DNA of 64,000 nt, taken from positions 58,010,946 to 58,074,945 of the forward strand of contig NC_092646.1 in the NCBI RefSeq assembly GCF_039555335.1, written 5' to 3'. This document shows, one piece after another, positions 14,147 to 19,308 of this stretch. Made by a program: the position numbers and the translations under genes. Every line of letters begins with the position of its first letter. Position 1 is the stretch's first letter. Source of the stretch: Amphiura filiformis. Its lineage: Eukaryota. The notes under the pieces are model-generated. The model was not told the DNA's origin. It saw only the letters and a list, made by a program, of their open reading frames with translations, and did not search any database.

Positions 14147-14258
14147 CTTTTTTTGGAACGGAAGCCATCTTTAATTCACAAGGCTCTTCAGGTTTGGATG
14201 GTGCACCAAATACTTTTCGATGAACTATACCGGGTGATGAAGGCTTGGCTAAAGGTAT
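14147..14258 (-). CDS. Module exon X (IPLAKPSSPGIVHRKVFGAPSKPEEPCELKMASVPKK)
   Basis: The acceptor is tattgcag| and the donor AAG|gtaact. The phase is 0 to 1. The exon and about 70 bp of flanking intron are conserved against the copy near 17.1 kb. Confidence 0.5.
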
Positions 14259-14761
14259 CTGCAATATTATGAAAAACAGTTAAGCATCATTAATTTGATT
14301 TTGTGCGCTTGTTTGTAATGCGCCTGTCAATTGCAATACTGGGACTTAGCCGGGACTGTTACATGTTTGTAACAGTTTCGAAAATTACGTCCCTGCTAAG
14401 GTCCCTGCTATCCCAGGGTCGGGGGCAGGGAATGCAACTGACATTATTATATGACGCTGGTGGGTAAGTATCATTAAGTGCATGATCTTGTACTAAGTCC
14501 TGTTAAGGCTGTAACTCCATTTTTTATTAAATTGAGGTAAGTTCATTCTTAGGTAAATTGAGGGTGCTATTTTCATTTCAGAAAGTCTTATAATCTCTAA
14601 ATCAGATAGCATATACCCTATATCACACACATTTTGAAATTTTTACTACTTTGTTCATCTATATCTACATCTACAAAATACTCAATAACGTTGTAATTGA
14701 CTTATTTGTTATGTTATGTGTTATGGCAGAAGAACTTCTCTTCCCATCAAAAGTTGAGTCT

Positions 14762-14875
14762 GGTTTATCAGGGACAGTCTGTGTAGCTTAGCATGATCCA
14801 ATTAAAGGTCTGGGGCTCAAGTCCCCACACTGGCAGTATGTCCTGAGTTTTTTCTCTGGCTTATCTGCCTACGTA
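14762..14875 (+). mobile_element. tRNA-derived SINE (family 2)
   Basis: It carries gtctgtgtagcttag...ggtctggggctcaagtcccc. A paralogue lies at 17590-17752. Confidence 0.6.
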
Positions 14876-14969
14876 TGTTATTAATTATATTTCCATTGTA
14901 ATATCATGATTGAATGATAATCTTTCTGAAAAGTAGTGCAATCTACAGATTCATCAGGATCGGTATAGT

Positions 14970-15505
14970 AAACTGGTTAACAAAGTTCTTTGTATCTGAT
15001 CCAGAATTTTCACTTACTTGTGTACGTTTCAACAACACCTGTTGTCTTTATCAACACTTGATGGGTAGTGACTGCTACTGACAACCGGCGCTAGAAGTAG
15101 TTCCAGCGTTGATCTTGGAGTTGCCAGTTGGTTTTCCTCGAAGGGATTTTTGGGTCCCTGTTTCAGAAACTCATCAAATATGTGAGATAGTTGGTACTGT
15201 CCTTCATCTCTGTTCATGTTCTCTGTTCAAATAAGAAAGAGGAGGGGCACCACCATGAACAGAGATGAAGGACAGTACCAACTATCTCACATATTTGATG
15301 AGTTTCTGAAACAGGGATCCAAAAATCCCTTGGAGGAAAAACCAACTGGCAACTCCAAGATCAATGCTGGAACTACTTTAGCTAGCCGGTTGTCAGTAGC
15401 AGTCACTACCCATCAAGTGTTGATAAAGACAACAGGTGTTGTTGAAACGTACACAAGTAAGTGAAAATTCAGGATCAGATACAAAGAACTTTGTTAACTA
15501 GTTCA
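14970..15505. repeat. About 535-bp near-perfect palindrome (foldback)
   Basis: 14970-15230 is the reverse complement of 15235-15505. This explains the mirrored ORFs MNRDEGQYQLSHIFDEFLKQG... on both strands. Confidence 0.85.
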
Positions 15506-15599
15506 ATCTATTCCTTGCTGTATGTAAAGATGGCAAAAATAAAATAAGCTTGACAAATGATATCAAATTTTTTTTGTTTTTTGGGGGGTACCATTATGT

Positions 15600-16300
15600 A
15601 ATGTCAATTTAGAAACTAAACTACAATCTGCCCAAAGAGCAATGGAACGGCAAATGTTAAACATCTCACTGCGAGACAAAGTAAGGTGCTCAACCTTCAG
15701 ACAGCTGACCGGTGTTGCAGACATTTTGAGGAAAATCAAACAATCAAAAAGGAGATGGGCTGGACATGTTGCCAGAAGAAATGATAACAGATGGACAAAG
15801 AGATTGTTAGAATGGCAACCAAGAATGTGAAAAAGAAGCAGAGGTACACAGAAGAAGAGGTGGAGAGATGATATAACATCATATATTGGTACAACATGGG
15901 CGAGAGTAGCATTAGATAGAAAGGTATGGAGTGATCATGAGGAGGGCTACATCCAACAGTGGATTGACATAGCCTAGATGGATAGATAGCACAGAATTAG
16001 AGAAGGAGAACCGGGACTCCCTATACCGGCATGTACAAATGCGCCGATCAGCTATGGGGAGAAAATTGGGGGTATTCGGGTCCTTGCCGACGGTGCGCGG
16101 AGACGAACGAAAACAATTCTGCGTTTCATCTGAAGCGTCTTGGTACTCGCGTGCAGGTCGCATCAAGTGCGACTCTCAAATGCGCCCATCATCCATGTCG
16201 CGTTTGCATGACAACGAATGCCAATTTTTGCTCCATGCCTGTATCAAGATGGCGGTCGAGTCCCGGTTCTCTGGTTTTAATTCTGTGATAGATAGATAGA
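15600..16300 (+). mobile_element. LINE ORF2 C-terminal fragment plus 3'UTR ending in (GATA)n
   Basis: ERQMLNISLRDKVRCSTFRQLTGVADILRKIKQSKRRWAGHVARRNDNRWTKRLLEWQPR is the classic reverse-transcriptase tail motif (AMER.MLGISLRD...W.WAGH.AR). (GATA)4 lies at 16285-16300. Confidence 0.65.
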
Positions 16301-16344
16301 TGATGTCAATGGTTCTTTAAGAAACCCCCATGTCTTTCACTTAC

Positions 16345-16460: not shown

Positions 16461-17111
16461 CTGCAACAGATAAATATGATATGATACCAATAAAGACATA
16501 ATAATAAATAACATTGGCCCAACAATTAGGCAAAAAAACAAATTGTTTGCTTGTCCATAGATTACTTTCAGAAGTTGGGTTGGTCGGTCAGTCGGGAAGA
16601 ATTTTTTTCTTGTTTTTTTTTTTTCTTATATCTATTTTTTCAAGTGTTCACTTCAAAATTTATTCAAGATATAGACTCCAAATCTGTGAAAAAAAAATAA
16701 AAATCGCAAAAAAAAATAAATAAAACAGATTTTTTAATTTTTTGGAAAATCATGGTGCGTTTTTTGGCCTCCAAAATCCTGTATTCTTAGCAGCCCTATA
16801 TTAACCGCCCATGCCCCTATAATCACCCACCCAGTGACTTTACAACAAGCAAACCGATATTAGTTTATTAACTGCCCATGCAAATCTGAATCATGGTCTG
16901 ATGCATATGACACACTGATGATAGATGAATATTTTGGGCCATTTTTACATCTTCTTGGCCTTAACAATGTAAAAAATAAGCGCCCACCCAAAATGATTTT
17001 ATTAAATGCCCTGGGCCATTAATGTAGTGTGTAGGTATATAGATTTATATCCAAGTGATGTTTGACCAATGGGATTACAGAATTCATGTCAAAAGCATGA
17101 TGAATAGTTAC

Positions 17112-17223
17112 CTTTTTTTGAAACGGAAGCCATCTTTAATTCACAAGGCTCTTGTGGCTTGGATGGTGCACCAAATACTTTTCGATGAACTATACCGGGT
17201 GATGAAGGCTTGGCTAAAGGCAT
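17112..17223 (-). CDS. Module exon X' (MPLAKPSSPGIVHRKVFGAPSKPQEPCELKMASVSKK)
   Basis: The acceptor is ttccag| and the donor AAAAAAG|gtaact. It is nearly identical to the exon at 14147-14258. The phase is 0 to 1. Confidence 0.5.
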
Positions 17224-17589
17224 CTGGAATATTAAGAATAACAGTAAGCATCATTTGATTTTGTGTGTTAGTTTGTAATGTTATGGTGTGCCTCTTCCCT
17301 TAAGCTTGTTTCTATTATATTACACGGAATTGATCTTACACGCCGGTGGACATGTGTTGTGTACTTTCTTATGAATTTGAAACTACATTTAGCACAGATT
17401 CAAGTTTAAAAAAGATACCTTTAGGCCTACTTTGCAAAAATTGGCCATTTAACATCTGTGTTACTGCTACAAAAAAGCCTTATTCTGTGTTTTAGTTCAC
17501 AAGCATGCTTACAATTGTTGTATATGAGTGCCCCCCCAAGTGTTGTTTGTAATGTACTGTCTTCTCTTACCGCTCACATCTTTAAGTAC

Positions 17590-17752
17590 CAGATTTAAGC
17601 TCTGTTTATCAGGGACAGTCTGTGTAGCTTAGTGGTTAGGGTATCAGATGCATGATCCAAAGGTCTGGGGCTCAAATCCCTGCACAGGCAGTAACATCCG
17701 GAGGTTTTTCTCTGGTTTATCTCCGTGATTTATCTGCCTGTGCATGTTATAT
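17590..17752 (+). mobile_element. tRNA-derived SINE (family 2), fuller copy
   Basis: The tRNA-like head is gtagcttagtggttagggtatcagatgcatgatccaaaggtctggggctcaaatccctgcacaggcag. Confidence 0.65.
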
Positions 17753-17756
17753 GTTT

Positions 17757-18620
17757 CCATTTCATAATGGGCTATTCCAGTTGAAATCCACACTACCCCT
17801 GTGGAAGATTTTGGAAATATCATACACAGGGGGAGTATGTTTTTCAAATTTAATTGGTCAGAGTTAATGATTTTGAAACACATACTCCCCCTGTATTATG
17901 GCTTTACCGTTATCTTCCACAACTGGAGTAAGTATTTCAAATGGAAGTTACGCAATTGTTTATTCTACTAACAATTGATACTCCCTCTGTGGAAGACTTT
18001 AGCTAAATCTTCCACAGAGGGATATTAAATGGAATAGCCCAATTGAATGATAATCTTTCTGAAAAGCTTGACAAATGGGCTATTCCAGATGTATTCCGCC
18101 CCCCCTATGGAAGATATTTAAAAAAAATACAATTCCAGCTGGAATTGAGATGTGTCTAGAATTCCAGCAGTCATTTTTAGCAGAGATTCCGGCTGGAGGG
18201 TATGGAAGACATTGAGATTAGGTGAAATTCCGGCTGCTAAAATAAACGAAAAAACAAGAGTGGGGATTGTGAAAGGCCATGATGTGCCTATGGAAGACAG
18301 TCACATTTCTTAATATTCCGGCTGGAAAATGGTCAAAAATGCTCCAATTCCAGCAGAATCTTCACTTATGATCACCATCTCGATTAACCTATGAAAGACA
18401 TTTACTTGAATTCTGGCTGGAAACAAAATGTTCTAGTTCCAGGTGGAACCCTATGGAAGACATTTACATTTACGTGAATTCGCTGGCCATATTAGACATA
18501 TTACCACAATTCCGCAGTGTCCTCCATGGGTTTTTCCTGACATGTGAATTCGCTGTCAATTTAGCCCGTATTCGGAAGTGTCTTCCATAGGGGGTGCGGA
18601 ATACATCTGAATAGCCCAAT
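17757..18620. mobile_element. Cluster of MITE family A copies, including a 545-bp expanded variant at 18075-18620
   Basis: The terminal repeat gggctattccag...ccctatggaagat occurs repeatedly. The internal motif attccagctgga is iterated. Confidence 0.65.
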
Positions 18621-19201
18621 GACACCAAATTTGGTTTTGGTTTTTGGTACCCTTATTTGATGTCAATGGTTCTTCAGAGGTGTGAGAGGCCACAGACCAA
18701 AACTGAGGAAAATCATTAAAAATGCAGATGCAAAATGAAAGAAAACACATAAAATTTGGCATTCAAAAAAAGAAGAAATCAGCAGAAAAGAAGAACTCTC
18801 ACACCTAGATCTGCCAACCTACCTAAGTCAGAATAAGGGACATTGAGGCCAAAACCTTGCACATGTACACAAACCAGATACCGCCAAATTCAAAGACTTG
18901 AGGTGTGCAATACTTTCAGAATTCAGGGAAGGTTTTGCAGGTCTAAATTTATCACAATTGACTAAAGAGAATGCTTTAAAAAAAATTTAAAGTGAAATTT
19001 GCATCATTTCTGCTATTCTTACATTTAAATTTGCCATCACTGAAATTTTCAGAAGACAGGATTGTCCCTCTTTTTCACTTTGGAAAACCCCAAATGAGGG
19101 ACAGTCCCTCAAAATGAGGGACAGTTGGCAGGTGTGCACACCCCTGGTTCTTTGAGCAACCCAGGAGCCACATATTCCTTGTGTCCATGTCATTTACTTA
19201 C

Positions 19202-19308
19202 TTGGGTTTCACTTGCCATGAATCCTGATCTCTTTGCTCTTCTACTTTTTGTTTTTTCTCTTTGAGGTGGCATCGGCCCACTCTGCAACGCTTCTAGCAA
19301 ATCATCAT
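19202..19308 (-). CDS. Module exon Y' ([36 protein letters not shown])
   Basis: The acceptor is tctgatgcag| and the donor CAA|gtaagt. It is a diverged paralogue of the exon at 16345-16460 with the same phase (1 to 0). Confidence 0.5.

Follow-up and report, generated by a model that had tools for sequence, protein, structure and literature searches.

Tandem duplication of an exon pair within an annotated gene of the brittle star Amphiura filiformis

A duplicated exon pair in gene model XP_072018545.1

We analyzed a 64-kb window of Amphiura filiformis DNA (64,000 nucleotides; contig NC_092646.1 of RefSeq assembly GCF_039555335.1, positions 58,010,946 to 58,074,945; all coordinates below are positions in this window), in which a preliminary description had noted a unit present twice, each copy with two exons, X and Y. 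The exons lie on the minus strand, directly downstream of an exon with phenylalanine-glycine (FG) repeats. Our findings make it quite likely that X and Y in their two copies are four consecutive internal coding exons of one A. filiformis gene, and that they stem from one tandem duplication of a ~2.9-kb segment carrying the exon pair. In the order of transcription, the four exons are:

Exon Y2, 19308-19202, minus strand: 107 nt, phase 1 to 0; opens with a split D followed by 35 residues, with a core resembling the Diaphanous autoregulatory domain (DAD) and the basic cluster RRAKR; placed by exact threading of XP_072018545.1
Exon X2, 17223-17112, minus strand: 112 nt, phase 0 to 1; peptide MPLAKPSSPGIVHRKVFGAPSKPQEPCELKMASVSKK
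Exon Y1, 16460-16345, minus strand: 116 nt, phase 1 to 0; peptide (D)DMPEVMLDMSRNEAMPRQKPKPTRRSMRKGLSLASETH
Exon X1, 14258-14147, minus strand: 112 nt, phase 0 to 1; peptide IPLAKPSSPGIVHRKVFGAPSKPEEPCELKMASVPKK

Exon limits and phases were fixed by spliced threading, after minus-strand translation of the region read at 13800-19800. All four exons have canonical AG/GT splice sites and give, read from Y2 to X1, the phase chain 1>0>1>0>1. Among these sites are the acceptors ...ttgcag/, ...ttccag/, ...gttgcag/ and ...gatgcag/ (here and below, a slash in a sequence marks the exon boundary) and the donors AAG/gtaact for the X exons and CAT/gtaagt or CAA/gtaagt for the Y exons. X1 and X2 differ at 5 nucleotides and 3 amino acids (I versus M, E versus Q, P versus S; 34 of 37 residues identical), and 15 of 35 aligned residues are the same in Y1 and Y2, whose nucleotide identity is about 72-77%. 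Every element of the predicted exon structure, from coordinates and phases to the three X substitutions and the resulting peptide, was recovered on the minus strand. The Y-X pair is 228 nt long in unit 1 and 219 nt long in unit 2; each length is divisible by 3, so that copying the block leaves the frame unbroken.

A protein search with the neighboring FG exon returned a single protein, XP_072018545.1, a 645-amino-acid (aa) 'uncharacterized protein' of A. filiformis that forms a cluster of one member. This protein threads exactly across the minus strand of the window, from 20772 to 3829 (~17 kb), through 12 GT-AG exons without an internal stop. Y2-X2-Y1-X1 are exons 3-6 of the 12 and encode residues 107-256; they are preceded by the tail of the FG exon (...ATSSPKPSS/, continuing as /DDD...) and followed by VISTTL.... 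In this RefSeq model, the uninterrupted polypeptide that had been foreseen for the order Y'-X'-Y-X is present with its junctions (ASETQ/MPLAK, VSKK/DDMPEV, ASETH/IPLAK). The modules had also been suggested to form the 3' portion of the gene, which they do not, as they are internal exons and six further coding exons follow, down to 3829.

The duplication is a copy at the DNA level

Comparing the window with itself, we found two collinear ~2.9-kb units with five common blocks, intron sequence and a tRNA-like element included, which bears out the claim of a genomic unit present twice with its spacing kept. The shared and unit-specific features are:

Block around X1 (unit 1), 14060-14320, and its partner around X2 (unit 2), 17022-17280: 87% identical
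tRNA-like (short interspersed element-like, SINE-like) element, unit 1, 14763-14866, plus strand: internal deletion; intronic, antisense to the gene
tRNA-like (SINE-like) element, unit 2, 17604-17722, plus strand: Rfam tRNA match at 17618-17690, 35.1 bits
Small intron block, 14897-14933, matching 18030-18066 in the self-comparison
Small intron block, 15556-15608, matching 18618-18667 in the self-comparison
Block around Y1 (unit 1), 16328-16491, and its partner around Y2 (unit 2), 19185-19341: 71% identical, with identity peaking at the splice junctions
Unit 1-only insertion, 14971-15503: 533-bp near-perfect palindrome (hairpin) in the intron, arms 91.6% complementary
Unit 1-only sequence, 15609-16300: separates the two halves of a site left unbroken in unit 2 (18618-18674); holds an open reading frame (ORF) with ...RRWAGHVARR..., which we take to be retroelement-like
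Unit 2-only repeats, 17757-18620: family resembling miniature inverted-repeat transposable elements, >10 copies in the window; one element is bounded by the inverted repeats 18076-18114 and 18581-18618

Because the homology runs collinearly into the flanking introns, the duplication is a segmental copy at the DNA level and not a case of convergence. Within the X block, the exon is 95.5% identical between the copies and the intron flanks are 84-90% identical. The element common to both units had been named a SINE; it is tRNA-like (the Rfam score of 35.1 bits in the unit 2 copy compares with a threshold of 29) and a putative SINE. A 23-nt exact core of this element occurs at 2 sites in the 64 kb, both inside the duplicated units (0 expected), and ARAGORN called no tRNA at the element. 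A third copy of X or Y was not found in the 64-kb window. The unit 1 palindrome yields many sub-threshold Rfam microRNA matches on both strands, which reflect the hairpin only. Overall, the region is an ordinary tandem duplication of an exon pair within an already annotated gene.

X and Y have diverged unequally

The two copies of X are identical at 107 of 112 positions, compared to 341 of 399 in the alignable non-coding blocks (95.5% vs 85.5%, Fisher's test, p=0.003; against its own flanks, p=0.011), with 2 synonymous and 3 non-synonymous substitutions. Because X is nearly unchanged between the copies, the comparison points to purifying selection on this exon. The divergence of Y, in turn, lies at or above the non-coding level (p=0.05). 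At the nucleotide level, Y is conserved mainly around its two splice junctions, in a central ATGCCAC.TCAA and towards the ASET end; its peptide retains only its two termini, MP.Q in the middle and the basic cluster RR..(K/R).

Selection on Y had been argued from its keeping the frame and the splice sites. Frame and sites are indeed kept despite strong divergence, but the argument is weak: in a neutral simulation, 4-12% of trials (P = 0.04-0.12) ended with an open frame and AG/GT sites in both Y copies, and the ratio of non-synonymous to synonymous divergence (dN/dS) is ~1.5. The in-frame net length difference of 9 nt between the Y copies adds a factor of about 1/3, which brings the neutral probability to roughly 0.01-0.04. 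Together, this is modest evidence that the Y exons were kept usable, and it does not imply constraint on their sequence.

We propose that a single tandem duplication would have copied a ~2.9-kb segment holding Y (phase 1>0) and X (phase 0>1), likely by unequal crossing-over or replication slippage between intron sequences. Since the pair starts and ends in phase 1 and measures 219-228 nt, an extra copy would add 73-76 codons and leave the frame intact. The units would afterwards have acquired different transposon insertions, with X kept by purifying selection and Y drifting at or above the neutral rate. The module, which is probably disordered, would lengthen the stretch that links the FG-type low-complexity region at the N terminus to a substrate-binding domain (SBD) derived from HSC70, and we infer that all four module exons are included constitutively.

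The host gene model joins HSC70-derived and orphan sequence

The remaining parts of the model are as follows:

Coding exons 1-2, 20772-20672 and 20636-20416, minus strand: tail of the large FG exon; donor CAG/gtgagc, phase 1, joins Y2
35-nt 'intron', 20671-20637, minus strand: spans the A8 run at 20647-20654
Exon 7, 9724-9566, minus strand: phase 1 to 1, VISTTLSEEAN...KRKSMN; takes the X1 splice
Exons 8 and 9, 8884-8694 and 7798-7499, minus strand: HSC70-derived interdomain linker and SBD, divided by an intron
Exons 10-12, 6452-6300, 5498-5396 and 4091-3829 (stop included), minus strand: C-terminal ~170 aa

HSP70 is the sole Pfam family found in XP_072018545.1. The SBD is intact, with few substitutions (E=1e-73 against the rat HSC70 SBD), and the match covers only positions 378-557 of the 599 in the profile, that is, the linker and SBD; the nucleotide-binding domain that accompanies the SBD in the HSP70 family is absent. 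The 150 module residues are rich in Pro, Ser and Lys, with 29 K+R versus 17 D+E (net charge +12); 67% of them are disorder-promoting, and a charge-hydropathy plot places the module on its disordered side. A single-sequence AlphaFold2 model of XP_072018545.1 gave a mean predicted local distance difference test score (pLDDT) of 35, with even the HSC70 SBD mostly <50, and is uninformative on disorder.

Searches for relatives returned little. A word-indexed protein search with the 149-aa module found none, a weak negative given that XP_072018545.1 (100% identical) was also missed. Likewise, HMMER with the FG tail, the modules and exon 7 against 1.84 billion cluster representatives (50%) gave 0 matches, again a weak negative in that the protein did not match itself. 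XP_072018545.1 has evidently been assigned to some other representative, probably an HSP70, and any orthologues that share its architecture would be hidden with it. For internal regions of multi-domain eukaryotic proteins, an empty result from either search is no sign that relatives are absent. PDB sequence searches with the module and the C-terminal region produced chance-level matches only, and no relatives of the C-terminal ~170 aa were detected by a word-indexed search with 172 aa of this region or by Pfam and PDB searches; the word-indexed search also missed XP_072018545.1 itself. Exact-product look-ups for XP_072018545.1 and for a 232-aa genomic ORF returned no record.

In the intron between X1 and exon 7 (11178-13890), we observed direct repeats in the order A-B-B-A (A ~470 bp, B ~890 bp), all at least 99.4% identical; they are either a very recent element, LTR-like (long terminal repeat) or tandemly duplicated, or an assembly duplication.

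Two frameshifts separate the gene model from an upstream actin/poly-proline part

Upstream of the annotated model, actin residues 2-67, recognized by Pfam Actin, come from two minus-strand exons, one at ~25604-25468 and the large one that begins at 21584 (stretch 21584-20882). The phosphate loop of this actin-like part is degenerate (DLGLDTT vs DNGSGM). The intron between the two exons lies at codon 41/42, a classical intron position of actin genes. From the actin-like part the open frame runs on through poly-proline stretches and 114-nt LFG/GFG repeats; in this upstream conceptual protein, Pfam finds only Actin and Nucleoporin_FG. No annotated protein covering the actin/poly-proline part was found. 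Downstream, an extra A at ~20911 within a 114-nt repeat shifts the frame and leads to a stop at 20884-20882, and a second frameshift falls on the A8 homopolymer at 20647-20654, where one added A would restore the frame. The RefSeq coding sequence starts at an internal Met (20772) downstream of the ~20911 frameshift, and its 35-nt intron (20671-20637) looks like a modelling device. Because the assembly is based on Nanopore R9.4.1 and flye with a quality value (QV) of 31.6 (PMC11310086), both frameshifts could be assembly errors. The proposal that the modules belong to the actin-FG gene is thus supported in part: in the RefSeq model the FG-exon tail splices to Y2, but a link to the actin part, with the two frameshifts in between, is conjectural.

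The VFGAP in X had been read as a sign of FG membership. This did not stand up, as the similarity of X to the FG repeats is not significant (204 of 3000 shuffles reach the score) and Pfam Nucleoporin_FG (PF13634) matches the upstream exon only (35.5 bits vs a cut-off of 32.2), leaving the modules unmatched. The likeness to nucleoporin-type FG repeats is therefore confined to the LFG/GFG repeats of the upstream exon and one VFG in X; the family profile matches neither X nor Y, and the similarity between X and the neighboring FG unit falls short of significance. We also considered two origins for X, neither of which we retain: as a diverged FG-repeat unit it is unsupported (p ~0.07), and for derivation from the 3' end of the FG exon (PKPSS vs AKPSS) the nucleotide similarity was equalled in 41-59 of 500 shuffles.

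A tandem array occupies 24062-25538 (minus strand) in the intron at actin codon 41/42, with 8.7 copies of a 170-bp unit at 93% identity. Each unit carries a 69-nt actin exon fragment (phase 0>0) between an upstream ...cccaag/ and a downstream gtaagt, a potential symmetric mini-exon whose peptide has A or V at one position.

Points against a tandem exon-pair duplication in a functional gene

Several observations weigh against our interpretation. The RefSeq model that contains all four module exons is computational, with a doubtful 5' end (internal Met start, 35-nt intron over the A8 frameshift). No homologue of the module turned up, a weak negative in view of the searches having missed XP_072018545.1 too. 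For X, the dN/dS of 0.46 rests on just 5 substitutions and is not significant alone, and gene conversion could also have caused the high identity; we found no sharp 100%-identity tract marking a recent conversion at X, which leaves room for an older one. For Y, the dN of 0.37 and dS of 0.25 behind its ratio are the pattern of unconstrained sequence. Finally, with the non-coding divergence (K ~0.16) and a literature rate of 1.885e-9 per site and year (PMC11310086), the duplication dates to ~40 million years (My; ~43 My computed), but the dating uses alignable intron blocks only, so that divergence is underestimated and the age is of the lower-bound type.

A DAD-like motif in Y2

The only Pfam match within the modules is a weak one to Drf_DAD (PF06345, a 15-residue model) at the start of Y2. 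It invites a tentative reading, possible but on balance doubtful, in which exon Y would be a linear motif derived from, or converging on, the formin DAD (WH2-like) and the modules would bind formin DID or actin monomers. This reading concerns function and is compatible with the tandem duplication. The 10-residue core of Y2 is identical at 9 of 10 positions to the core of the human DIAPH1 DAD peptide (DIAPH1 1194-1222; PMC10656230), a score reached by 0 of 2000 shuffles. In addition, RRAKRSG in Y2 and RRSMRKG in Y1 resemble the DAD basic motif RRKRG, and the same locus carries, further upstream, actin residues 2-67 and FH1-like poly-proline runs.

Against these similarities stands, in the first place, the Pfam score itself: 12.1 bits vs a cut-off of 27.3 (E=0.21), found post hoc among 24,736 families. 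Compared with the DAD motif (MDxLLxxL followed by RRKR), Y2 has Asp in place of the key Met of MDxLL, the Phe anchor is absent, and RRAKR lies 11 residues past the core, vs 3 in DAD. Y1 has lost the core altogether (over 10 codons, 10 of the changes are non-synonymous and 2 synonymous). A genuine DAD follows an FH2 domain, whereas here Pfam finds neither FH2 nor DID in XP_072018545.1 or in the upstream conceptual protein. The PDB sequence searches did not recover DAD chains either.

Alternative explanations for the duplicated exons

One alternative, which we regard as unlikely, is that the two Y-X pairs are cassettes, used by pair skipping or in a mutually exclusive manner, so that transcripts would carry 0, 1 or 2 modules and yield isoforms with linkers of varied length or content. 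Since phase 1 is shared by the end of exon 2 and the starts of Y2, Y1 and exon 7, any skipping pattern, whether of one pair or of both, would preserve the frame. Tandem exon duplicates are generally tied to mutually exclusive splicing (PMC3342872), and the strong difference between Y1 and Y2 would produce distinct isoforms. On the other hand, the sole protein model found, from its single-member cluster, carries all four exons, and the eight splice sites are all equally canonical.

We give similarly little credence to the view that the locus consists of gene fragments in decay, put together as a mosaic (actin at the 5' end, HSC70 in the middle, orphan sequence besides), with the RefSeq model an ab initio chain of exons that are open by chance and the modules part of no functional protein. 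The two 1-nt frameshifts in the FG exon and the implausibly short 35-nt intron would fit such decay, as would the divergence of Y at or above the neutral rate, the upstream 8.7-copy array of an actin exon fragment, and the lack of detected relatives of the module, exon 7 and the C-terminal region (in searches that include those that missed XP_072018545.1). Decay sits poorly, however, with 12 exons that thread canonically over 17 kb without an internal stop, with the intact HSC70 SBD and its few substitutions relative to rat HSC70, and with an X exon significantly more conserved than the introns; moreover, single-base frameshifts, one of them at A8, are expected of a Nanopore R9.4.1 assembly with a QV of 31.6 (PMC11310086).

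At the other extreme, and in our judgment less probable still, the locus might encode one brittle-star-specific mosaic protein made of actin 1-73, FH1-like poly-proline, FG repeats, two DAD/WH2-like Y-X modules, the HSC70 SBD and a new C-terminal domain. The frameshifts would then be Nanopore errors, Y would be functional in binding formin DID or actin, and the copy number of the module would tune a cytoskeleton- or chaperone-linked activity.

An assembly artefact that set two haplotypes in tandem, conceivable in a haplotype-purged diploid Nanopore assembly of a genome with 3.2% heterozygosity (PMC11310086), can be dismissed, since the units are 13-29% divergent in alignable sequence, far beyond the allelic level, and hold different large insertions.

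Other features of the window

Outside the gene, a 75-bp minisatellite of ~36 copies with a higher-order period of 303 bp occupies 34316-37064. ORFs of 320-493 aa are open on both of its strands and are almost certainly not genes. Two large arrays, at 44154-46622 and 59528-62383, belong to one satellite family with 75/100/175-bp units. At 61216-63427 (minus strand), exon-like ORFs of a neighboring gene encode a MYND zinc finger (Pfam, 5e-08) and give a weak VWA_3 match (E=0.005).

Discussion

Tandem exon duplication is found in 7-17% of metazoan genes (PMC3342872, citing Letunic 2002 and Kondrashov & Koonin 2001), and our case shares its hallmarks: adjacent homologous exons on the same strand, homology that includes intron sequence, a preserved frame, and unequal divergence of the copies. 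It differs in that an exon pair, rather than a single exon, was duplicated, and in that the gene model places the copies in series to give a longer internal repeat, whereas known duplicates are more often mutually exclusive. Retention in series has a counterpart in the vertebrate COE/EBF helix-loop-helix exon, where the duplicated exon is reported to be under mandatory inclusion (PMC2394523), as it would be here according to the gene model. The COE exon contributes to a structured helix motif whose function is known, in contrast to the orphan low-complexity linker encoded here.

In summary, the duplication is a new example of a common mechanism, namely frame-neutral segmental duplication between introns, and the host gene is a lineage-restricted mosaic; apart from this composite structure and the DAD-like motif, nothing about it is unusual. 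By itself, the finding is of small import, as tandem exon duplication is common in animals and the exons are already in the RefSeq annotation. It does provide a clean, datable case of a frame-neutral exon-pair duplication with conservation of one exon and free divergence of the other. Should the motif in Y2 be real, it would represent a rare formin regulatory motif transplanted into an unrelated protein. The host gene itself may be worth study as a case in which parts of actin and HSC70, together with orphan sequence, were assembled into a new gene.

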